Virus record (IMG/VR): IMGVR_UViG_648276671_000013
Length of the DNA: 11,964 nucleotides
Source of the DNA: a virus
Taxonomy: Duplodnaviria; Heunggongvirae; Uroviricota; Caudoviricetes
Reading direction: 5' to 3' (one strand)
The notes below the pieces were generated by a model. The model was given only the letters and a program-made list of their open reading frames with translations, did not search any database and had not been told where the DNA came from. This document shows positions 1 through 11,964 of the stretch, piece by piece. The translations under genes and the position numbers were made by a program. Numbering within the stretch: position 1 is the stretch's first letter; each line of letters starts with the position of its first letter.

Positions 1-1266
1 ATGAAGCTCAGCGCCAGACAGGTCGAGACCGCAAAACCAAAAGATAAAACCTACAAAATGGCCGATGGCGGCGGTTTGTACCTTGAGGTTTCGGCCAAAG
101 GATCAAAATATTGGCGTATGAAATACAGACGCCCCTCTGACAAAAAAGAGGATCGCCTCGCTTTTGGTGTTTGGCCTACTGTGACGCTTGCTCAGGCAAG
201 AGCAAAGCGCGATGAAGCCAAAAAGCTATTAGTGCAGGGCATTGATCCAAAAGCCGAACAGAAAGAGGCTCAGGCCGAGAACTCGGGGGCATATACTTTC
301 GAAACCATTGCTCGTGAATGGCATGCCAGCAACAAGCGCTGGAGTGAAGACCATCGATCTCGCGTTCTTCGATATCTTGAGCTTTATATCTTCCCTCATA
401 TTGGTTCGTCCGATATTCGTCTACTCAAAACCAGCCACCTGTTAGCCCCAATTAAAAAAGTTGACGCTAGTGGAAAACACGACGTCGCTCAGCGCCTGCA
501 ACAGCGTGTAACGGCCATTATGCGTTATGCTGTACAGAACGATTACATTGACTCGAATCCGGCCAGTGATATGGCTGGTGCGCTATCTACAACCAAAGTG
601 CGACATTACCCTGCGTTACCTTCCTGCCGGTTACCTGAGTTTCTTGCACGTCTCGCTGCATATCGTGGTCGTGTAATGACACGGATCGCAGTCGAGCTTT
701 CCTTACTGACTTTTGTGCGTTCCAGTGAGTTACGTTTCGCGCGTTGGAATGAGTTCGACTTCGATAAAGCCCTTTGGCGCGTACCTGCAAAGCGGGAGGA
801 AATTAAGGGGGTGCGTTACTCGTATCGTGGTATGAAGATGAAAGAGGAGCATATTGTTCCGCTTAGTCGTCAGGCGATGAATTTGTTAGGCCAGTTGAAG
901 CAGATTAGTGGTGATAAGAAACTGCTTTTCCCGGGCGATCATGACGCAACTAAGGTTATGAGTGAAAACACAGTAAACAGCGCATTACGGGCGATGGGAT
1001 ATGACACTAAAACCGAAGTTTGTGGGCATGGATTTAGAACGATGGCGCGTGGTGCACTGGGGGAGTCGGGGCTATGGAGCGATGATGCGATAGAGCGTCA
1101 GTTAAGCCATACAGAACGAAATAATGTACGCGCGGCTTATATCCATACTTCTGAGCATTTGGACGAACGTCGATTGATGGTACAGTGGTGGGCTGATTAT
1201 TTGGAAGAGAATAAACTAAGAATGATAACACCATTTGATTACGGGAAAATATCTAATATAAAGTGA
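1..1266 (+). CDS. int: Tyrosine recombinase, P4-family integrase (421 aa)
   Basis: ORF starts at window position 1 with an N-terminus typical of P4-like integrases (...TAKPKDKTYKMADGGGLYLEVSAKGSKYWRMKYR...). C-terminal catalytic region has HGFRTMARGAL (His-x-x-Arg box) and VRAAYIH with a candidate catalytic Tyr. Sits next to the cargo hotspot as in P4. Confidence 0.9.
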   Translation: MKLSARQVETAKPKDKTYKMADGGGLYLEVSAKGSKYWRMKYRRPSDKKEDRLAFGVWPTVTLAQARAKRDEAKKLLVQGIDPKAEQKEAQAENSGAYTFETIAREWHASNKRWSEDHRSRVLRYLELYIFPHIGSSDIRLLKTSHLLAPIKKVDASGKHDVAQRLQQRVTAIMRYAVQNDYIDSNPASDMAGALSTTKVRHYPALPSCRLPEFLARLAAYRGRVMTRIAVELSLLTFVRSSELRFARWNEFDFDKALWRVPAKREEIKGVRYSYRGMKMKEEHIVPLSRQAMNLLGQLKQISGDKKLLFPGDHDATKVMSENTVNSALRAMGYDTKTEVCGHGFRTMARGALGESGLWSDDAIERQLSHTERNNVRAAYIHTSEHLDERRLMVQWWADYLEENKLRMITPFDYGKISNIK

Positions 1267-1291
1267 GTTTATAAAAATCAACTTTTGAAGC

Positions 1292-1309
1292 GGGGGGATT
1301 CCCCCCCCC
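1292..1309. terminator. G6-ATT-C9 hairpin between convergent int and cargo genes; probable bidirectional terminator
   Basis: GGGGGGA/TCCCCCC inverted repeat flanked on both sides by ACTTTT and ATAAAAAT direct repeats. Lies between the int stop (1266) and the cargo gene stop (1325). Confidence 0.35.
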
Positions 1310-1324
1310 AAACTTTTATAAAAA

Positions 1325-2217
1325 TTAAACATCTTCTCGACGTTTAGAGTTTGCGCGATATAGCGTTCTGGTTATATGGGATGTGAAATAGTCCTCATCT
1401 AAAAAATGCAATAATCTTTTTACATCTTTTCTTATTTGCGGCATTTTTATTTTTTCTAATTCACCGATTTTTTCAGTTTCTAGAACAACACCAATTTCAG
1501 CCGCTGATATTCTTAACTCAGTCACAGAGTAGTCCTCAAGTATTCTTGATTTATTAATCAAGGAAACTTTCTTTCTAATAACAGAGTCAGCAATTGTTGT
1601 TAAATCAAAACCCGGAGCTACTGAAAATTTTTCATGAGAAGAAAAACTTGTTAATTCTTCATTAGTGGCTTCTCTGAAATAAGCATCTACATCAAATATC
1701 CTGCGGAGCATATGGAAGCTTTTAAACTTTAATTCTGTACCTGCAAGAATAGCTGTTAGCTTATTGTCGATGACTATACCATGCTCAGTAGACTGGCAAA
1801 AGGTATTGCTTGCCTGAAATGGTTTTTGGAAAATTGTTCTTCTGTTATCAATAACTTGCCTTTTATCGAAGCTTTGGATTAAGGCAGTTGCAGGTTTTCC
1901 ATCCTCTTCAGGATAGCCTGAAAACAGAGCGATTATATTGAAGACTGATATTTCTTCCGGCTCCCATGGAGGGATAGTTGTGGGATTATTAATAGCATCT
2001 AATACAGCGATAACATCATCAAAGTCAGGAATGACAAAAAACTCATCTCCACTAGTGATGTAGCCACCTGAAAATTCTACGCCTTCTGTATAGCGTTCTT
2101 CAAAAAAGTTTTTTGTTCATTGAATAGCTGTGTGATTACATTTTGAGTCGGCCTGTCAGTAACAATTTTTACAATGCGTGTGCCAACTGTATTATCTGTT
2201 ATTGCAAACAATTCCAT
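1325..2217 (-). CDS. Cargo protein B, about 297 aa if one nucleotide is restored in the A6/T6 run at 2101-2116; as written it is frameshifted (N-terminal 46 codons from ATG 2217 end at TAG 2077-2079, the rest is in another frame)
   Basis: The frame of the 128-aa ORF (1325..1711) stays open for 135 more codons upstream (to 2116) with no ATG/GTG/TTG. An ATG at 2217, 8 nt after the upstream gene stop, opens a 46-codon ORF in a different frame. The two frames meet in CAAAAAAGTTTTTTG. AT-rich. Product identity unknown. Confidence 0.6.
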
Positions 2218-2225
2218 ATTTATTC

Positions 2226-2741
2226 CTATATTGCTATATATGTGTAATCAGTAAGCTTAATCAAATTAACACGATTGCCTGATGCTTTTAACAGTGGCTT
2301 TTTCGATAATATAACAAAGCTTACGCCTGTATCGTCTTCGGCTTCATAATATTTATATCCCCAAAATGATAATAATGGGTTGAAACTGTAGGAACCTGAA
2401 AAACTGATGTAAAAAAATAAACTCACAGCAAAGAAAGAAGCAATCCTAATATCCATAAATGCATCTGGACCACTGATTAAGGGAAATAAATAGGTTAAGA
2501 AATAATTTGTTATCTCCTTATCTGCTGGAGAAGCGGTAGTTAATTTTTTACTGGTTACAGAATTATATTTAATTGCGTATTTAACAATCAAAACACACAG
2601 TAAAAGTATAATTGCACACAATGATAAGTAAGCAATCATAAATTTATAGTGTTTTGATATACATGAAAGAAAAGCTAAGGTAAAAAATACCGGAGCAACT
2701 GAGCTGGCAGTAAGAAGATATTTGGCAAGCTTATTTAACAT
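2226..2741 (-). CDS. Small integral membrane protein, 171 aa, four predicted transmembrane helices (cargo protein A)
   Basis: Four hydrophobic stretches (LLTASSVAPVFFTLAFLSCI, MIAYLSLCAIILLLCVLIVKYAI, ITNYFLTYLFPLI, IRIASFFAVSLFFYISFSG). Strong SD AGGAGG 5 nt upstream of ATG. Stop is 8 nt from the start of the next gene, so operonic. Confidence 0.8.
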   Translation of the reverse strand: MLNKLAKYLLTASSVAPVFFTLAFLSCISKHYKFMIAYLSLCAIILLLCVLIVKYAIKYNSVTSKKLTTASPADKEITNYFLTYLFPLISGPDAFMDIRIASFFAVSLFFYISFSGSYSFNPLLSFWGYKYYEAEDDTGVSFVILSKKPLLKASGNRVNLIKLTDYTYIAI

Positions 2742-2914
2742 ATTATCCTCCTTATCTGCCCTAGTATCTGTATATAAAAACAGTATAACATCAATTTAAG
2801 CATCAAAGAAGATAATAAAAATCAATTAAATCATAATGATGCCTGCGTTTTTAAAGTGTGGGCTTTTGGAGGCGGGTAATGTACGCGCGTATTCCCTGGA
2901 GATTCCATTTAAAA

Positions 2915-2930
2915 GGCTACGTATGTAGCC
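2915..2930 (-). terminator. Intrinsic terminator candidate downstream of the 103-aa gene
   Basis: GGCTAC-gtat-GTAGCC hairpin; on the minus-strand RNA it is followed by UUUU. Lies 9 nt past the stop at 2939. Confidence 0.4.
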
Positions 2931-2938
2931 TCATGTAT

Positions 2939-3250
2939 TTAAGAGTACTGGCCCCAATCTCTGGCAATAAACCAGTTTGGCGTCCAGCTAACAAACTCTT
3001 GCGGATGAAAGTTTTGAGGGATTACAACTAGAGATACAATCGCTTCAGGTTGCAAACTGAGAACATGACTTTTTTTATCGCTTTCGTAATCCCAAAAATG
3101 GAATCTGTCACTTTTATCATGAGCTCTACGACTAGGACCGAAGTCCATAGGCGCAGTTAATCTTGTGATTGTCGCGTTATCTTCTTTTGAATAAAAAGTT
3201 AGCTGAATTTTTAAACAACTATGAATGGCATCAATGAATTTATCGCGCAT
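2939..3250 (-). CDS. Hypothetical protein, 103 aa, monocistronic cargo gene adjacent to cos
   Basis: ATG preceded by AAGGAG SD. Own terminator hairpin downstream, and about 197 bp of AT-rich spacer before the next gene. No recognisable motif by eye. Confidence 0.7.
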   Translation of the reverse strand: MRDKFIDAIHSCLKIQLTFYSKEDNATITRLTAPMDFGPSRRAHDKSDRFHFWDYESDKKSHVLSLQPEAIVSLVVIPQNFHPQEFVSWTPNWFIARDWGQYS

Positions 3251-3376
3251 ACGTTCTCCTTTGTAGTTACTAAATTAATATCCTCTATTGATAGATTATT
3301 GTGTGTGATCATTGCGGCATTTAATAAAACGTAATGAGTTCATTGTATTTTATTTATGTTATCAGCCTTGCGCGCA

Positions 3377-3395
3377 GTGCTTTCCCCGCCTCGCC
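3377..3395. other. cos cohesive-end site of the P2/P4 family (19 nt)
   Basis: GTGCTTTCCCCGCCTCGCC on the plus strand is the exact reverse complement of GGCGAGGCGGGGAAAGCAC, recalled as the P2/186/P4 cohesive end. Embedded in a GC-rich imperfect palindrome next to psu. Confidence 0.6.
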
Positions 3396-3495
3396 CGCCC
3401 GCTTTGCGGGGCGGTTTTAATGCAGTTGCACTGACACGCTCAGGCCGTGCCGGGAATGGCGCGGTATACAGAAAATGAGGCAGGAAAACGCATGC

Positions 3496-3529
3496 AAAGC
3501 CATGCACCTTATCGATGCATGGCTTTTTT
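3496..3529. terminator. Hairpin with flanking A/T runs; probable bidirectional terminator ending the sid-delta-psu late operon
   Basis: AAAGCCATGCA-(9 nt loop)-TGCATGGCTTT followed by a T run on the plus strand; on the minus strand the stem is followed by GCGUUUU. Lies 30 nt downstream of the psu stop. Confidence 0.5.
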
Positions 3530-3559
3530 CAGTAAAAACAGGCGGATTTTCGGGGAATT

Positions 3560-4132
3560 TTACACAGACTGACGTGATGCCAGTTGCGCACTTTTACGCG
3601 AAAAAATCATGTTCTGCGCAGGAGTGAATTTTTCACGGCTGTCATCCACCGAAGCCGCGTCAGGCCTGAATCCGATGGTCGTTAAAATGTCGCTATCCTG
3701 TGCGGAATAATTAATTTTTTCCCCCTTCGCAAGCCAGGACAGAAGGGCTTCACGCAGGGCATCTGTGGCACGCTGTATGGCACAGTTTCGGGCAATGGCC
3801 GTCAGCTCACTGTAGCCCATCAGCTCCGGTGCCAGTGCCGCCGCCAGTGCTGTGCCGTGCTGCTGCATAAAATCATTCAGCCGGTCGCGGATGCTGATGT
3901 ACTGAACGGCTTCATGCGAACGAATATAACGACCGGCGGCCTGATTCACCTGCCATTTTCTGACTTCGATAATATTGCGTAATTCGTCCAGGCGACTGAC
4001 GTTTCTGCCTTCTCCTGACAGAAGCCGCAGGTATTCCTGTTCGGCCGCTGCCAGCTCATTTTTGCGTTGCAGCCATGCTGCTTTGTTATTCTGACAGGTG
4101 TCAAAGGCCTGCTGTAAGGCTGTGCTTTCCAT
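3560..4132 (-). CDS. psu: Polarity suppression protein Psu (190 aa)
   Basis: Length and sequence (MESTALQQAFDTCQNNKAAWLQRKNELAAAEQEYLRLL...) match recalled P4 Psu. Last gene of the late operon. Confidence 0.92.
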   Translation of the reverse strand: MESTALQQAFDTCQNNKAAWLQRKNELAAAEQEYLRLLSGEGRNVSRLDELRNIIEVRKWQVNQAAGRYIRSHEAVQYISIRDRLNDFMQQHGTALAAALAPELMGYSELTAIARNCAIQRATDALREALLSWLAKGEKINYSAQDSDILTTIGFRPDAASVDDSREKFTPAQNMIFSRKSAQLASRQSV

Positions 4133-4205
4133 CGTTATCTCTTTCTCATCATGCTGAAGAATAAAAATACGGTGTGCGGCGACGGCCGGTGTTAACCGGC
4201 AGCCC

Positions 4206-4706
4206 TCATTCCAGACGCAGCGAATATGATTGTGTTTTTAAGCGTACTGGCGGCAGTTCCTGTTTTTCATGCAGGCTTTCTGCCAGTTCGTCCGGCGTGA
4301 CCGGGCGGACAATGAAACGGTTGATGGTCTGAAGCGTTTTAAACACCAGACCACAGCCCGGATCCGTGCACACATAAAAACGCTCGGTGACTTCCTGAGA
4401 CAGACGCCTCGATGTTCTTGACAGTGCAAGGCCTTTACATCTCCGACAACAATATCCGGTAACAAGCATTCTTTTCGGGCGTTTCATACTGCCGGAGGCT
4501 GACGTCAGTGAATCGCGGTATCTCTGTTTGCCTGAAATGTATTCCATTCCTGAATCTTTACTGTCAGAGAAAAAGCTTTCACTCGCTTCAAATGTCGCAG
4601 AGCAATAAATATTCCGGCACTGTGCAATCATTATCTTGGTGCCATCGTCCATGAAATGTGCGCGGCGGGTGTGAGCAACATGTCCACACGACGGGCAGTA
4701 AATCAT
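4206..4706 (-). CDS. delta: Delta, Ogr-like zinc-finger late-gene transactivator (166 aa, two Ogr-like halves)
   Basis: CPSCGHVAHTRRAHFMDDGTKIMIAQCRNIYCSATFEASESF is an Ogr-type zinc finger, and a second C-x2-C ... C-x4-C half follows. Length matches P4 Delta. The ATG overlaps the sid stop as ATGA. Confidence 0.92.
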   Translation of the reverse strand: MIYCPSCGHVAHTRRAHFMDDGTKIMIAQCRNIYCSATFEASESFFSDSKDSGMEYISGKQRYRDSLTSASGSMKRPKRMLVTGYCCRRCKGLALSRTSRRLSQEVTERFYVCTDPGCGLVFKTLQTINRFIVRPVTPDELAESLHEKQELPPVRLKTQSYSLRLE

Positions 4707-5437
4707 GACAGCAGTCCTCTGGCCTTAAGCTCTGCACCCTGCTGGTCTATTTTGTCCTGCCACACCTTGCGCTGTGCCGGTGTGCCTGCCACCTCATAAT
4801 CCATGTGCGGGAGTGTTGCCGCTGACAGTCCGGTCAGCCGGAGAACCGGCTCGCCGGTGAGGCTGATTTGCATCTGTTTAATTTTCTGTTCCAGCGATGA
4901 TTTCACCTGCTGCATGACAGCTTTATCGGGTGCGACGTAGCCCTGATGGCCGGTGGTGTTGGCGAGCGGATTTTCCTGTACCAGGATACTCAGATGCATT
5001 GCCCGGACAAGCGCCTCACAGGTTTCATTCAGGGCGTGTTCCAGCTCATGCTCTGCATACAGACTCAGAAGGTGATGATGTGCCTTCCGGTAGGCGGTGG
5101 CCGTGCTGTCACACGCCCCTTTCAGGCGTTCACGTTCGAAATTCAGCACCACGGCCAGATTGTCATATTCCTGTACCAGCTCCCGGCGTGCCACGCGCTC
5201 AATATGGCGCTGTTTCAGCTCATCGCTCAGGACACCACCGGCTGCACGAAAGGCCGTGCGCCAGTCGTCAGCGTCGTTTCCGTCGGCCTGCACCAGCGCA
5301 TTTTTTTCCTGCTCTGCCCGTTCAATGGCCGCGACGGTCTCATCCATCAGGCGGGCGTTCTCAAGATGGGCGGCTCTGGCCTTTTCCAGTTGTGCCAGTG
5401 CGGGTTGCAGATATTCAGGGATAGTGTGGTCAGACAT
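4703..5437 (-). CDS. sid: Capsid size determination protein Sid (244 aa from the second ATG)
   Basis: The ORF track starts at 5455, but a GAGGAG SD lies between the two ATGs and the 5437 start gives the 244 aa recalled for P4 Sid (MSDHTIPEYLQPALAQLEK...). Confidence 0.9.
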   Translation of the reverse strand: MSDHTIPEYLQPALAQLEKARAAHLENARLMDETVAAIERAEQEKNALVQADGNDADDWRTAFRAAGGVLSDELKQRHIERVARRELVQEYDNLAVVLNFERERLKGACDSTATAYRKAHHHLLSLYAEHELEHALNETCEALVRAMHLSILVQENPLANTTGHQGYVAPDKAVMQQVKSSLEQKIKQMQISLTGEPVLRLTGLSAATLPHMDYEVAGTPAQRKVWQDKIDQQGAELKARGLLS

Positions 5438-5509
5438 TTTCCGGCTCCTCGTCACTTCAGGTTAAGAAAATTGTGACGTACACCGGACAACAACACGACG
5501 CATTGCAGA

Positions 5510-5527
5510 TGTGCCAGCCCTGACACA
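5510..5527 (-). promoter_or_regulatory. Psid late promoter activator site (TGT-N12-ACA dyad for Delta/Ogr-type activators)
   Basis: TGTGCCAGCCCTGACACA is an exact TGT-N12-ACA, centred about 81 nt upstream of the sid ATG, which fits the usual -55 position in P2/P4 late promoters. Confidence 0.5.
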
Positions 5528-5605
5528 GGAGACTCATCCTCAGACCGGCAAGCCAGGAAAAGGTCGCAGGAAAAACCGGCTTACTGTTTGTTTTTTTATA
5601 TTTTA

Positions 5606-5710
5606 CTGTTCACCTCTGTTCACCATAAGAAAAAAGATAAGTAATACAGTAAGTTAAAGGGTGAACAATCGCAGTAATGACTGTTCACCGTCTGTTCACC
5701 ACTGTTCACC
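5606..5710. repeat. ori-like iteron cluster: six copies of the octamer TGTTCACC (five direct, one inverted)
   Basis: CTGTTCACC at 5606-5614, 5616-5624, 5681-5689, 5692-5700, 5702-5710 and inverted GGTGAACA at 5660-5667. This is the type I iteron recalled as the alpha-protein binding site in P4 ori/crr. Confidence 0.6.
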
Positions 5711-5988
5711 CGTTAATGGGCTTTTTGTGCTGTTCATTACTTTTTATTTTTATTAATTCACTGAAATAAATAAGAAAAAACAATTTGTATTTCACTATAA
5801 TTTTTTCCAGCTCCTTCCAGAGCGTTTTAAAGCTATCTGGCGCTGATGTACAAAAAATACACAGCCATTGTAAGACTGCCGGAACAAATCCCCCCTGTTG
5901 CGTCTGCCGAAAATATTCACAAAATAAAGCGCTACCCGAAGCCGGACGGACTTATCCGGTGCTGTATGGACATTAACGAGGTAGCCCG

Positions 5989-6255
5989 ATGCAAGCTGTT
6001 TTTTCTTCCCCGTCTCCCGCCCCTGTGACGCCACTGATGCCGCTGCCGGACATCACGCAGGAGCGTTTTTTACGTCTGCCGGAAGTGATGCACCTGTGCG
6101 GCCTGTCACGCTCGACCATCTACGAATTCATCCGTAAGGGGGAATTTCCGCCGCAGGTGAGTCTTGGCGGTAAAAATGTGGCCTGGCTGCACTCTGAAGT
6201 CACCGCATGGATGGCCGGGCGCATTGCCGGACGCAAACGGGGGTACGACGCATGA
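5989..6255 (+). CDS. vis: AlpA/Vis-family excisionase-regulator (88 aa)
   Basis: Core [48 protein letters not shown] is an AlpA-type HTH. 88 aa matches P4 orf88 (Vis). GAGG lies 8 nt upstream. An alternative internal start at 6037 cannot be excluded. Confidence 0.7.
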
Positions 6256-6290
6256 TGATGCCTGTTCTGCAAAAAGTCCCTTTTTCTGGC

Positions 6291-6320
6291 TTGCCTTTTT
6301 CCGGCATTTGCGGATATAGT
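6291..6320 (+). promoter_or_regulatory. Candidate sigma70 promoter (PLE-like) for the left operon
   Basis: TTGCCT - 18 nt - TATAGT, downstream of vis and upstream of the structured leader and small genes. Confidence 0.3.
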
Positions 6321-6644
6321 TTTTCCGCTGTCGCAAAATCGGCAGCCGGGCGTAGGAACCCGTGTAACTCGAAGGCGACATATGACGCGCCATGCGTCTT
6401 TTTTTGTGTCGCAATCAACGCCACAGAGCGCCAGATTATGGTGTGGCGTGTGGTTTGCCGTGCAGGTATGATCCTGTTCGCAATCGCATGTTATGCCACT
6501 GAGTCAATGGTAGCTCAGGCGGGGCAGCCTCCGGGCTGGCCGGTATTCTTCGAGGCCGGTATTCCTACCCCCGTCTGGGCTATCGCCATCGAGCGTAGGA
6601 ACTCCGGCGATAGCAGTTATTTGCTACTCGAAGGAGACGGCCTT

Positions 6645-6842
6645 ATGGCTACAACCCTTACCCCCTCACACCCTGAATTTGTCTTTGTGTTTGCGGCTGT
6701 CCGTCGCGCAGACCGTCATCCCCGTATCTGTATGCTTCGCACCGTCGCCGGTGATGAACGCAGTGCCCGCCGTTCCCTTGTCCGTGACTATGTGCTCTCC
6801 CTTGCTGCCCGTCTGCCGGTGGTGGAGGTGTCCCGTGCGTAA
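6645..6842 (+). CDS. Small hypothetical protein (65 aa) in the left operon
   Basis: AAGGAGA SD 7 nt upstream of ATG. Stop TAA overlaps the GTG start of the next gene (GTGCGTAA). The 211-aa ORF in the track is an upstream extension of this frame across the leader. Confidence 0.45.
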
Positions 6843-7122
6843 TAAAAAAGCCCCTCAGACCGTCTCAGCGCGTCATGACGCCCGTGAACACCTCAGCATT
6901 GAGGCTTACCATAAGCTCAACCGCGCCAGCGCCGTATCCCAGTTTGTTGGGGGTGATTTGATTCACCGTGAGCTCTCCGGCCTGCATCAGCTCTACATTC
7001 CGCATATTTTCAGCTACCTGAATGAGGATATTGATTTTGTGCTGAATGAGCTGAAAGCCAAAGGCCTGTGCCGCGATTTTCTCGCCCAGCAGAAAGACCG
7101 GGGAGACAGGACGCATGTTTGA
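6835..7122 (+). CDS. Epsilon-like (derepression) protein candidate, 95 aa, GTG start
   Basis: GGAGG SD 6 nt upstream of GTG. Sits immediately upstream of orf151 as epsilon does in P4. Its stop overlaps the orf151 start (ATGTTTGA). Sequence identity to P4 epsilon not verified. Confidence 0.45.
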
Positions 7123-7570
7123 TTTTCCCCAGCCCGGTGAGATTTACCGTTCTGCCGGTTTTCCCGATGTGGCCGTTGTCGGCATTCTGGAAGACGGTAT
7201 TCCGTGGGAAATGCCGTACCGCTGCCCGGACATTGTCTGGAACCCGTACCGCCGTAAATTCAGTATCCTTGTGCGTATCCTCGCTGACGGGCGCACCACA
7301 GACATCCCGCTGGGGCGTTTTCTGCGGGAATTTACCTGTGACCGTCCTGACCTGTTTAAACGCAGCCCCGTAAACCGGCATGCGGTACTGAAAGAAATGG
7401 CCGGAGACCCGGAATTACAGAAATGGCGGGAGAAATATCTGGATATTTACCCGCAGGACACTGTTCCGGCCAGCCGGGCGGCACCGGTGGCGCGGGAATG
7501 GCGGGAAATTCCCCGCACGGAGCCTGACCCGGAAACCACCCCGGATAACAGTTACCGCAATTATCTGTAA
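7115..7570 (+). CDS. Conserved P4 left-operon protein orf151 (151 aa)
   Basis: Length and position upstream of alpha match P4 orf151. GGAGA SD upstream. Translationally coupled to the preceding gene. Confidence 0.8.
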   Translation: MFDFPQPGEIYRSAGFPDVAVVGILEDGIPWEMPYRCPDIVWNPYRRKFSILVRILADGRTTDIPLGRFLREFTCDRPDLFKRSPVNRHAVLKEMAGDPELQKWREKYLDIYPQDTVPASRAAPVAREWREIPRTEPDPETTPDNSYRNYL

Positions 7571-7705
7571 TTAAAAAACGACACCCGAAAAATTAAATGT
7601 GCGTATTCGCGCAGGGATACGCACGTCTTCAGGAGACGCAGATATGCCTTATCAGTTAATGCAACCGGCACGGAATGCAGTCATCTGTCACAGGGAGGAA
7701 AGCAA

Positions 7706-8026
7706 ATGAAAACACCCTTACCGCCCGTCTTACGCGCAGCCCTTTACCGTCGTGCTGTCGCCTGTGCCTGGCTGACCGTGTGCGAACGTCAGCACCGCTA
7801 CCCGCATCTCACCCTTGAATCACTGGAGGCGGCCATCGCCGCTGAGCTGGAAGGCTTTTATCTGCGCCAGCACGGTGAGGAAAAAGGGCGTCAGATAGCC
7901 TGTGCCCTGCTGGAAGATTTAATGGAATCCGGCCCCCTGAAGGCCGCGCCGTCGCTGTCCTTTCTCGGGCTGGTTGTGATGGATGAACTCTGTGCCCGTC
8001 ACATAAAAGCGCCGGTACTGCACTGA
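7706..8026 (+). CDS. Conserved hypothetical protein (106 aa) immediately upstream of alpha
   Basis: GGGAGG SD upstream. AAGGAG for alpha lies just after its stop. No motif recognised. Confidence 0.7.
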
Positions 8027-8040
8027 AGGAGAACAACACC

Positions 8041-10374
8041 ATGAAAATGAACGTAACCGCCACCGTCAGCCATGCGCTCGGCCACTGGCCGCGTATTCTC
8101 CCGGCGCTGGGGATTCAGGTGCTGAAAAACCGTCATCAGCCCTGTCCGGTCTGTGGCGGGAGTGACCGCTTCCGTTTTGATGACAGGGAGGGGCGCGGCA
8201 CCTGGTACTGCAATCAGTGTGGTGCCGGTGACGGCCTGAAACTGGTTGAAAAGGTGTTTGGTGTCTCCCCGTCCGACGCGGCCGCAAAGGTGGCTGCCGT
8301 GACCGGCAGCCTGCCCCCGGCTGACCCGGCAGTGACGGCTGCCGCCGGTGCTGAAACAGACGCTGCCCGGAAGAACGCCGCCGCACTGGCACAAACCCTG
8401 ATGGCGAAAACCCGTACCGGAACCGGTAACGCCTACCTGACCCGCAAGGGCTTTCCCGGCCGGGAATGCCGGATGCTGACCGGCACACACAGAGCCGGTG
8501 GCGTGAGCTGGCGCGCCGGTGACCTTGTGGTGCCACTGTATGACGACAGCGGCGAACTGGTTAACCTTCAGTTAATCAGCGCTGACGGCCGTAAGCGCAC
8601 CCTGAAAGGCGGGCAGGTCAGGGGCACCTGTCACATCCTTGAAGGACAGAATCAGGCCGGAAAACGTCTGTGGATAGCGGAGGGATACGCGACCGCACTT
8701 ACCGTACATCACCTGACCGGTGAAACGGTGATGGTGGCGCTTTCTTCCGTGAACCTCCTTTCTCTGGCCAGCCTTGCCCGGCAGAAGCATCCGGCCTGTC
8801 AGATTGTCCTTGCCGCAGACCGTGACCTCAGCGGTGACGGCCAGAAAAAAGCCGCCGCAGCCGCAGATGCGTGTGAAGGTGTTGTTGCCCTGCCGCCGGT
8901 CTTCGGTGACTGGAATGATGCCTTCACGCAGTACGGCGGGGAAGCCACCCGTAAGGCCATTTACGATGCCATCCGGCCACCGGCTGAAAGCCCGTTCGAC
9001 ACCATGAGCGAAGCGGAGTTTTCCGCCATGAGTACCAGCGAAAAGGCCATGCGTATCTATGAGCATTACGGCGAGGCGCTCGCGGTCGATGCCAACGGCC
9101 AGCTTCTGTCCCGTTATGAAAATGGTGTCTGGAAGGTGCTGCCACCACAGGACTTTGCCCGGGATGTGGCCGGGCTGTTTCAGCGGCTGCGTGCGCCGTT
9201 CTCCTCCGGGAAGGTGGCCTCCGTGGTGGACACCCTGAAGCTGATTATTCCGCAGCAGGAAGCCCCCTCCCGCCGCCTGATTGGCTTTCGTAACGGCGTG
9301 CTCGACACGCAGAACGGCACGTTCCACCCGCACAGTCCGTCACACTGGATGCGCACCCTGTGCGATGTGGATTTCACCCCGCCGGTGGACGGTGAAACGC
9401 TGGAAACCCACGCTCCCGCGTTCTGGCGCTGGCTTGACCGTGCCGCCGGTGGCCGTGCGGAAAAACGCGACGTGATTCTGGCCGCACTGTTTATGGTGCT
9501 GGCAAACCGCTACGACTGGCAGCTCTTTCTGGAGGTGACCGGTCCCGGCGGCAGCGGCAAAAGTATCATGGCCGAAATAGCCACCCTGCTGGCCGGGGAG
9601 GATAACGCCACGTCGGCCACCATTGAGACGCTGGAATCCCCGCGTGAACGTGCCGCGTTAACTGGCTTCTCACTGATACGCCTGCCGGACCAGGAAAAAT
9701 GGAGCGGCGACGGTGCCGGACTCAAGGCCATCACCGGCGGCGATGCGGTGTCCGTTGACCCGAAATACCGGGATGCATACTCCACGCATATCCCGGCGGT
9801 GATTCTGGCCGTGAACAATAACCCGATGCGCTTCACCGACCGCAGCGGCGGCGTGTCACGCCGGCGGGTGATTATTCACTTCCCGGAACAGATAGCCCCG
9901 CAGGAGCGCGACCCGCAGCTTAAGGACAAAATCACCCACGAGCTGGCGGTCATCGTGCGTCACCTGATGCAGAAGTTCAGCGACCCGATGCTCGCCCGGT
10001 CACTGCTTCAGTCCCAGCAGAACTCAGACGAGGCGCTGAACATCAAACGGGATGCCGACCCGACGTTTGATTTTATCGGCTATCTGGAAACCCTGCCGCA
10101 GACCAGCGGCATGTATATGGGGAACGCCAGTATCATCCCGCGCAATTACCGTAAATACCTCTATCACGCCTATCTGGCCTACATGGAGGCAAACGGCTAC
10201 CGGAATGTACTCAGTCTGAAAATGTTCGGGCTGGGGCTGCCGGTGATGCTGAAGGAATACGGACTGAATTACGAGAAGCGCCATACCAAACAGGGGATAC
10301 AGACCAACCTGACGCTGAAAGAGGAAAGCTACGGCGACTGGCTGCCAAAATGTGAAGACCCTGCAACAACCTGA
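8041..10374 (+). CDS. alpha: Alpha protein: bifunctional DNA primase-helicase (777 aa)
   Basis: N-terminal primase zinc finger (CPVCGGSDRFRFDDREGRGTWYCNQCG), central TOPRIM-like region, C-terminal Walker A (GPGGSGKS) of a D5/SF3-type helicase. Length equals P4 Alpha. Confidence 0.95.
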   Translation: MKMNVTATVSHALGHWPRILPALGIQVLKNRHQPCPVCGGSDRFRFDDREGRGTWYCNQCGAGDGLKLVEKVFGVSPSDAAAKVAAVTGSLPPADPAVTAAAGAETDAARKNAAALAQTLMAKTRTGTGNAYLTRKGFPGRECRMLTGTHRAGGVSWRAGDLVVPLYDDSGELVNLQLISADGRKRTLKGGQVRGTCHILEGQNQAGKRLWIAEGYATALTVHHLTGETVMVALSSVNLLSLASLARQKHPACQIVLAADRDLSGDGQKKAAAAADACEGVVALPPVFGDWNDAFTQYGGEATRKAIYDAIRPPAESPFDTMSEAEFSAMSTSEKAMRIYEHYGEALAVDANGQLLSRYENGVWKVLPPQDFARDVAGLFQRLRAPFSSGKVASVVDTLKLIIPQQEAPSRRLIGFRNGVLDTQNGTFHPHSPSHWMRTLCDVDFTPPVDGETLETHAPAFWRWLDRAAGGRAEKRDVILAALFMVLANRYDWQLFLEVTGPGGSGKSIMAEIATLLAGEDNATSATIETLESPRERAALTGFSLIRLPDQEKWSGDGAGLKAITGGDAVSVDPKYRDAYSTHIPAVILAVNNNPMRFTDRSGGVSRRRVIIHFPEQIAPQERDPQLKDKITHELAVIVRHLMQKFSDPMLARSLLQSQQNSDEALNIKRDADPTFDFIGYLETLPQTSGMYMGNASIIPRNYRKYLYHAYLAYMEANGYRNVLSLKMFGLGLPVMLKEYGLNYEKRHTKQGIQTNLTLKEESYGDWLPKCEDPATT

Positions 10375-10390
10375 CCCTCATGACTCATCT

Positions 10391-10415
10391 GACCGGCATC
10401 TGCCGGTCTTTTTTT
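10391..10415 (+). terminator. Rho-independent terminator after alpha
   Basis: GACCGGCA-tc-TGCCGGTC stem followed by T7, 17 nt after the alpha stop. Confidence 0.7.
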
Positions 10416-10430
10416 ATCCCTGAATTCCCC

Positions 10431-10710
10431 GAAGGTGAACAATCCACTGTTCACCCTTCACCGTATATTCACCTGTTATCACACTGAAATTAAAAGAGAA
10501 AAACGAAAGGTGAACAGTGTGAACAATCAAATCAAAAAAAACTTTTTTTCTCCCTGTGTGATTTTCAGTACGGGGGATTAATCACCGGTATGAGTCACAC
10601 CGGCAGAATGCCGGAGGTGAAGAATCGAATGTTCACCCTTCACCCATTATTCACCACCTATCATACTGAAATAAAAGGAGAAAAAAGAAAGGTGAACAGT
10701 GTGAACAGTT
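10431..10710. repeat. crr-like region: two roughly 100-bp direct repeats each carrying TGTTCACC/GGTGAACA iterons
   Basis: Repeat 1 (about 10431-10530) and repeat 2 (about 10612-10710) share GGTGAA...TGTTCACCCTTCACC...ATTCACC...ACTGAAAT(T/A)AAAAG(A/G)AGAAAAA(C/A)GAAAGGTGAACAGTGTGAACA. Matches the recalled P4 crr organisation. Confidence 0.55.
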
Positions 10711-10920
10711 CTTTCGAAAAAAAAATTTTTATGTGGATAAAAGATGCACTGGTTTGGATCCGGGCTACGGATCCAAACTTACTGATTAAAAATTATTTAA
10801 CTTTCCGATTTATTGATGGGCTGAAAATAGATTGGTCAGAAAAACAGTGGGGGCACAAAAGGGGGCATATTTCATTGTTGTGTTTTATTATTTGTTTTTT
10901 ATCATTAACTTATTTTAATG

Positions 10921-10942
10921 TTTGAGTCCGGCCTTCGCACCA
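10921..10942 (+). other. att core remnant: degenerate copy of a tRNA-Leu (leuX-type) 3' end
   Basis: TTTGAGTCCGGCCTTCGCACCA resembles the recalled tRNA-Leu 3' end TTCGAGTCCGGCCTTCGGCACCA with one substitution and one missing G. No tRNA body upstream (AT-rich), so this is a core repeat, not a tRNA gene. Confidence 0.5.
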
Positions 10943-10955
10943 AAAGTATGTAAAT

Positions 10956-10979
10956 AGACCTCAACTGAGGTCTTTTTTT
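10956..10979 (+). terminator. Rho-independent terminator just downstream of the att core
   Basis: AGACCTC-aact-GAGGTCT followed by T7; positioned like a tRNA gene terminator. Confidence 0.55.
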
Positions 10980-11142
10980 ATGCCTGAAATCCGCACCACG
11001 CAAGGCTTTTCCAGCTTTTCTCCTCAACTGAAGTCAACCTGACTCAACCCACATCAACAGGCTTGTGAGTATACTAATAAGCATATTTGCCGATTCGATA
11101 TTGCTTGTATACTCACGAGATACCAATGGAAGGAAGACCATT

Positions 11143-11964
11143 ATTGCCCTAACGGATACTAAAGTTCGTTCTGTGAAGTCAGAGGAGAAAGAGTATTCAC
11201 TTGTTGACGGCGACGGCATGTCTTTACTTGTAAAACCTGGCGGTTCAAAGTATTGGTGATTTCGTTTCCGTTCTGGTGGTAAACAACATTTGATGGCGTT
11301 CGGCGTTTACCCGGATGTTTCGCTGGCGGATGCGCGGAAGAAAAGGGAAGAGGCCAGAAAGCTGGTAGCTGCTGGTATCGATCCTCGTGAGCATAAACGT
11401 GCTGTGAAAGAAGAGCAGGCGAAAGAGATTATTACTTTCGAGAAGGTTGCCAAATAGTGGCTCGTGACCAACCAAAAATGGTCGGAATATCATGCTAATC
11501 GTCTAAAAAGAGCCTGGAGGAGAATATCTTCCCGGCAATTGGTGCTCGTAATATTGCTGAACTGGGCACCCGCGATCTGTTAATTCCCATTAAAGCTGTG
11601 GAGAAATCCGGACGTCTTGAAGTGGCTCCTTCAACAGCGCACCACGGCCATCATGCGTTATGCAGTGCAAAGCGGGTTAATTGATTACAATCCGGCGCAA
11701 GAGATGGCGGGGGCGGTTGCTTCCAGTAATCGACAACATCGTCCGGCGCTGGAATTAAATCGCATCCCTGAGTTGCTTGAGAAAATAGACAGCTACACCG
11801 GCAGGCCGCTAACCCGCTGGGCAACGGAACTCACTCTACTTATCTTCATCCGCTCCAGTGAACTGCGTTTTGCTCGCTGGTCAGAAATCGATTTTGAAAC
11901 GTCAATGTGGACCATCCCTCTTGATGGGCATTGCAGTAAGCTGAGGGTTGGACTGGTATTGTAA
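11143..11964 (+). pseudogene. Second P4-family integrase, disrupted (start codon lost, two in-frame stops, at least two frameshifts); continues to the window edge
   Basis: Three reading frames together spell an integrase paralogous to int at 1-1266 (IALTDTKVRS...GGSKYW*FRFRSGGKQHLMAFGVYPDVSLADARKKREEARKLVAAGIDP...VAK*WLVTNQKW...TTAIMRYAVQSGLIDYNPAQEMAG...ELRFARWSEIDFETSMWTIP). Confidence 0.8.

Follow-up and report, generated by a model that had tools for sequence, protein, structure and literature searches.

A one-base frameshift in kwaB of a Kiwa anti-phage cassette on a P4-like satellite of Escherichia coli

Introduction

Kiwa is an anti-phage system carried by mobile elements, in which kwaA, a gene for a membrane protein, is followed by kwaB, whose product contains a DUF4868 domain, and both genes are required for activity (Doron et al., 2018; Zhang, Todeschini et al., PMC11785009). 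Deletion of either kwaA or kwaB abolishes defence, residues R21, R35 and N42 of KwaB lie in its interface with KwaA, and KwaB binds DNA via DUF4868 with no DNA degradation in vitro (PMC11785009). Natural forms exist in which KwaB is split into two genes (70 of 9,797 loci), and these published splits fall between the Rossmann-like and DUF4868 domains, with both halves encoded (Zhang, Todeschini et al., PMC11785009). In P4-like satellites the interval from psu to int is a known hotspot for defence genes, and Kiwa is named among its occupants (Rousset et al., 2022, PMC9122126).

The DNA analysed here, hereafter the window, is the 11,964-nt stretch of IMG/VR virus record IMGVR_UViG_648276671_000013. 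From its gene content it is identified as an integrated P4-like satellite of E. coli that carries Kiwa, kwaA then kwaB, in the hotspot between int and psu. It shares with the described systems the order of a membrane-protein gene and a DUF4868 gene and the location on a mobile element, but differs from published Kiwa (PMC11785009) in that kwaB is disrupted and the system presumably inactive. The disrupted allele, which has six thymines (T6) where intact alleles have seven (T7), is already in public records, and the gene, the system and the kind of locus are all known. We discuss below the locus, the lesion and its distribution, and the explanations that may account for it.

A P4-like satellite with Kiwa in its defence hotspot

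The P4 backbone is present in full, with int, psu, delta, sid, the alpha primase and the CI/C4 immunity RNA all found in the window. One anchor of the hotspot is a P4-type tyrosine integrase gene (1..1266, plus strand; Pfam Arm-DNA-bind_3, Phage_int_M and Phage_integrase), which adjoins a tRNA-Leu gene in homologous genomes, and the other is psu (3560..4132, minus strand; Pfam Psu, E 7e-88). Further along are delta (4206-4706; Pfam Ogr_Delta), a sid-like gene (4703-5455) assigned by Pfam and PHROG searches, and the gene for the 777-aa alpha primase-helicase (8041-10374; Pfam alpha primase domains). Rfam matches on the plus strand to isrK RNA (6327-6404, 69.4 bits) and to the C4 antisense immunity RNA (6503-6590, 74.4 bits) confirm the assignment of a predicted P4-type immunity region. 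Between the two anchors, with int (1-1266) on one side and psu on the other, kwaB, kwaA and an ORF of 103 codons fill positions 1325-3250. The GC content of kwaAB (1325-2741) is 34%, against 48-61% in the backbone genes. A hairpin of the form G9-AAT-C6 (1292..1309) separates the convergent int and kwaB, and its G/C run varies in length among genomes and is longer, for example, in strain A10.

The 103-aa ORF (2939..3250, minus strand) lies between kwaA and psu and accompanies the kwaAB cassette; it gave no match in Pfam, PADLOC, PHROGs or phage records. It is found in 31 complete genomes of E. coli with at least 99% identity, and because this count equals that of the kwaAB allele, also 31 (the numbers, rather than the lists of genomes, being compared), it seems to be linked to Kiwa and looks like hotspot cargo, probably outside the P4 backbone.

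The first-pass annotation had described a large cargo gene at this position, which is here identified as kwaB of the Kiwa system. When its frame is repaired, the 297-aa product matches the PADLOC KwaB model PDLC00222 (E 6.5e-117, residues 1-294 aligned to model positions 1-290 of 292), scores 28.2 bits against Pfam KwaB PF16162 (DUF4868; cut-off 26.3), and is identical to WP_000418440.1, annotated as "Kiwa anti-phage protein KwaB-like". Upstream, kwaA (2226..2741, minus strand) is intact and ends 8 nt before the kwaB ATG, which is preceded at 8 nt by an AGGA element. Its 171-aa product matches PADLOC PDLC00216 (E 1.6e-76) and has three TM-like hydrophobic windows, as is typical of membrane proteins, and in homologous loci a precomputed Pfam match to PF28043 KwaA is recorded. 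A KwaB domain and an upstream membrane KwaA are thus both encoded, and only kwaA is intact, so that the locus is classed, on these sequence matches, as Kiwa by descent that is incomplete as a system. This variant is too diverged from the solved Kiwa structures for detection by sequence search: a PDB search with KwaB and KwaA returned nothing usable, which left no solved structure on which to locate the break.

The kwaB reading frames and the missing base

As it stands in the window, the effector gene kwaB (1325..2217, minus strand) is 893 nt long, against 894 nt when intact, and is spread over two frames of the minus strand. An ORF that starts with the ATG at 2217-2215 and ends with the TAG at 2079-2077 forms a 5' stub (2077..2217) of 46 codons, comprising 38 native KwaB residues and eight out-of-frame residues before the stop. 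A second frame, shifted by 2, is free of stops from the ACA at 2116-2114 to the TAA at 1325, and the first ATG, GTG or TTG within it is the ATG at 1711, which is Met170 of KwaB and the sole in-frame start codon of a 128-aa ORF (1325..1711, minus strand). Where the frames overlap the window sequence is CAAAAAACTTTTTTGAAG; on the minus strand the junction tract consists of six adenines at 2114-2109, a cytosine at 2108 and six thymines at 2107-2102, which on the plus strand is A6-G-T6. The A run (2109..2114) has the same length as in intact alleles; the adjoining T run (2102..2107) is T7 in them, and it is here that a missing base throws kwaB out of frame, as a comparison with four of the fetched loci (L001-L004), where the tract is CAAAAAACTTTTTTTGAAG, illustrates. 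With one base inserted into either the A or the T run, both frames join as a single ORF of 297 codons. In intact kwaB the T7 run is encoded by the codons for Thr37-Phe38-Phe39 (ACT TTT TTT) and is the longest homopolymer of the gene, all remaining runs being of six bases or fewer.

The cassette is present in 38 complete E. coli genomes, at 99% identity or more in 31 of them, and in the loci fetched from complete genomes kwaB is a continuous gene of 894 nt with the tract A6-C-T7. A 101-nt query centred on the tract was run against the 31 genomes: in 30 it aligned with a one-base gap relative to the window (A6-C-T7), and only A10 (NZ_CP028764.1), where the annotation gives a hypothetical protein of 148 aa for the kwaB region, matched the window exactly. 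The closest intact counterpart, NY1601 (NZ_CM135959.1), shows no mismatch and a single gap relative to the window over positions 1-4300, and across 894 nt the window kwaB is the NY1601 gene minus one T.

These results bear out most of what had been noted on first inspection of the letters. The limits of the stub and of the start-less frame, the latter taken to run from 2116 to 1325 and to lack a start before 1711, are as described there, and so is the proposal of one larger gene that a single extra base in the A or T run would repair, the repaired ORF being full-length KwaB. The runs themselves are real, and only the span given for them, 2101-2116, needs an immaterial correction of one or two bases. 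Alignment with intact homologues, put forward as the check, finds exactly one more T in them. The observation named as fatal to this reading, a stand-alone 128-aa gene among homologues with no protein spanning the junction, was not made, since 30 of the 31 genomes encode a 297-aa protein that spans it. In every fetched locus that contains the 128-aa ORF, kwaB is broken upstream by some lesion, and this ORF is a remnant of the 3' part of kwaB and no independent gene.

Rarity and recurrence of the frameshifted allele

Intact and disrupted forms differ widely in abundance. By counts taken from a collection of 15 billion proteins and capped at 1000, intact 297-aa KwaB reaches the cap, with at least 1000 contigs, against 12-15 for the 46-aa stub and 23-27 for the 128-aa ORF. 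All ten of the fetched stub-bearing loci have T6, and 297-aa KwaB is encoded in all six of the fetched loci that share an identical alpha protein and reach kwaB. The intact satellites of NY1601 and APEC O18 (NZ_CP006830.1) have the same gene in the same kind of satellite and the same position between int and kwaA, but with T7 and a continuous ORF of 297 codons, whereas the window has T6 and a stop after 46 codons. A difference in match length (1521 versus 1522) was tried as a marker of the frameshift and rejected: all four loci fetched on this basis had T7, and the difference arises in the G/C run of the hairpin between int and kwaB.

A10 and the contigs L006-L015 have the T6 frameshift and the 46-aa stub, as in the window, but on different satellite haplotypes (A10, for instance, is 98.6% identical to the window over 11 kb), and therefore at least some of these alleles stem from separate mutational events. 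Haplotypes were delimited from SNPs over window positions 1-3380. One of them includes the window and L008, with NY1601 as its T7 counterpart; a second unites A10 with L006, L007, L009, L011, L012 and L015, and is found with T7 in nine complete genomes, among them RM8082 and NWU_1; a third comprises L010 and, roughly, L014, with T7 counterparts in APEC O18 and the RM137xx strains. T6 thus stands on at least three backgrounds, each of which is also seen with T7, and the deletion has therefore arisen several times. A Klebsiella-type allele (P0020) has the same T6 stub, and another stub (P0017) has a protein sequence that matches the loss of one A from the A6 run.

Loss of one T from the T7 run is the commonest lesion found in kwaB, and it has company elsewhere in the gene: Q30* (88C>T), E41* (121G>T), delT178 and delC335, and, in the 93% allele of OkiPb01714, the loss of 16 bp at this very A/T tract. 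Real loss of kwaB must occur in nature, because the nonsense substitutions Q30* and E41* cannot be homopolymer miscalls. By comparison of these sequences, T6 is classed as one of several independent and rare alleles of kwaB that are predicted to be loss-of-function. The kwaB homologues with these other lesions are those of L021, L022, L023, L028 and L018, and kwaA is intact in most of these loci.

Deletion, assembly error or functional arrangement

We consider it probable, if well short of assured, that the strain has undergone a real and non-programmed deletion of one base at the longest homopolymer of kwaB, by which Kiwa would be inactivated. The most serious competitor, which we regard as a real possibility of distinctly lower probability, is that the strain has T7 and an intact kwaB and that one T was lost by the assembler or in sequencing. 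None of the loci fetched by way of the exact 46-aa, 128-aa and alpha proteins is identical to the window. Over positions 1-10990 just four differences separate it from L030, its nearest relative, and three of them concern homopolymer length (at 1300, 2101 and 10543), as would be expected of such errors, although the run at 10543 is polymorphic in other lineages too and, at 10972, it is NY1601 that is the outlier while the window agrees with the consensus. All of the fetched nearest relatives of the window have T7; yet the window contains 10-11 runs of seven or more bases and no gene other than kwaB is frameshifted. Some of the public T6 contigs are visibly error-prone, with int, herA or adh split as well (L008/L027, L013 and L024), but A10, a complete genome, has the allele too, as do several clean assemblies with intact neighbours (L006, L007 and L009-L012). 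Recent inactivation and sequencing error, two of the three causes suggested by the first-pass annotation, thus both stay in contention; the third, on/off switching, draws no support, since T7 is not conserved in diverged alleles. The accompanying description of KwaB as a potentially toxic effector is likewise unsupported, the text of the Kiwa paper being without the word "toxic" (PMC11785009).

The remaining proposals would make the broken frame part of how the gene works, and we reject all three as the main explanation; together they share what the deletion and the assembly error leave. Homopolymer phase variation is known in the restriction-modification systems of Haemophilus, Neisseria and Campylobacter, and by analogy A6-C-T7 might be a slippage hot spot that reversibly turns Kiwa on and off on P4-like satellites, with T6 as the OFF state. 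The locus resembles phase-variable defence genes in having a homopolymer frameshift inside a defence gene that is reversible in principle, a single T insertion being enough to restore kwaB, and the change from T7 to T6 has occurred independently on at least three haplotypes and once more in the Klebsiella-type allele. It differs from them in that the tract is short, OFF alleles are rare and there is no sign of selected mutability. Seven bases are below the typical length of contingency tracts; alleles of 93% identity encode the same Thr-Phe-Phe with ACA TTT TTT, T6 being in frame, and an allele of 91% reads ATA TTT TTC; OFF alleles account for some 1-3% of genomes (1 of 31 complete genomes; about 15 against at least 1000 contigs); runs of A and T are expected from composition in a cassette of 34% GC, and the T7 run exists because of one synonymous choice (ACT) in this AT-rich cassette; and the other lesions of kwaB, nonsense mutations or deletions, are irreversible. 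A switch is accordingly very improbable. Still less credence is due to a rescue by recoding, in which full-length KwaB would be made by -1 frameshifting on U_UUU_UUG or by transcriptional slippage on A6/T6. The zero frame, acU UUU UUG, is formally an X_XXY_YYZ heptamer on which a -1 slip would lead exactly back into the KwaB frame, and a stretch of 96 nt around it is predicted to fold more stably than shuffled versions (z = -2.98), but this fold is mostly pairing of the A run with the U run plus a weak 5-bp hairpin downstream, an SD-like element upstream is absent, and the homologues are in a single frame, so no stimulator could have been selected. Efficient transcriptional slippage requires runs of about nine or more. 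In E. coli the best heptamers give about 0.3% frameshifting without stimulators, and the list of motifs that exceed 0.1% does not include U_UU.U_UU.G (PMC4066793). With a heptamer present and neither a conserved two-frame arrangement nor a stimulator found, a programmed -1 frameshift was rejected. Least credible of all is a functional split like the natural two-gene forms of KwaB. The window shares with them (70 of 9,797, PMC11785009) an annotation of KwaB as two ORFs, and the 128-aa ORF starts at Met170, near the Rossmann/DUF4868 boundary at 185/186 of the solved 315-aa O55:H7 homologue, a numbering that is approximate here; but the published breaks are at the domain boundary with both halves translatable, whereas the window breaks at residue 38, within the N-terminal domain, and is the intact gene minus a single base with no compensating change. 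A functional split was rejected on the ground that residues 39-169 are untranslatable, their frame having no start codon before 1711.

Consequences of a one-base deletion in kwaB

If the base is truly missing from the strain, as the favoured deletion would have it, one T was probably lost from the T7 run by strand slippage during replication. Translation would leave the KwaB frame past residue 38 and stop eight codons on, and the remaining 259 codons would be without a start codon before Met170. No full-length KwaB would then be made; kwaA would be left orphaned beside a 46-aa stub and, at most, a poorly initiated C-terminal fragment, and Kiwa protection would be expected to be absent. No protection is expected from the T6 allele because both genes are needed and residues in the N-terminal part of KwaB contact KwaA. 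The remaining satellite genes in the window are all intact, and therefore the lesion, if real, should be recent.

The damage is ordinary and recurrent, or possibly a sequencing error, and implies no new mechanism. What it means for annotation is that the locus is best entered as a kwaB pseudogene or flagged for resequencing, rather than recorded as two small hypothetical genes, and that a strain with the T6 allele should not be scored as Kiwa-positive. Surveys of "split KwaB", such as the count in PMC11785009, may include frameshifted alleles like that of the window. This kwaB allele has been struck repeatedly by independent loss-of-function lesions, mostly at its sole T7 run, and repeated loss of kwaB fits the fast turnover by which mobile elements acquire and lose defence genes. 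Were the tract a switch after all, lineages could discard Kiwa, perhaps so as to take in plasmids or a helper phage, and recover it through re-insertion of a T, and satellite-bearing populations would be mixtures of Kiwa-ON and Kiwa-OFF cells.

Neighbouring and related elements

Directly beyond the right end of the satellite a second P4-type integrase gene starts in the window (11617-11964, plus strand), and such a gene is found at 11600-12865 in both L031 and L032; its position past the right end indicates what would be a tandem island. Downstream cargo varies among loci with an identical alpha protein, consisting of a kinase and a HerA-like set in L031 and L032, BREX genes in L029, and a helicase-PLD gene in L030. 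At window positions 10543-10549 an intergenic tract, A8-C-T7, has a layout of an A run, a C and a T run like that of kwaB, and is one T longer than in the closest relatives. In two related satellites (L021, 1340-3671; L023, 1329-3663) the alpha primase-helicase is split into a part of 633 aa and a small N-terminal piece, so that decay in some of these elements extends beyond a single gene.
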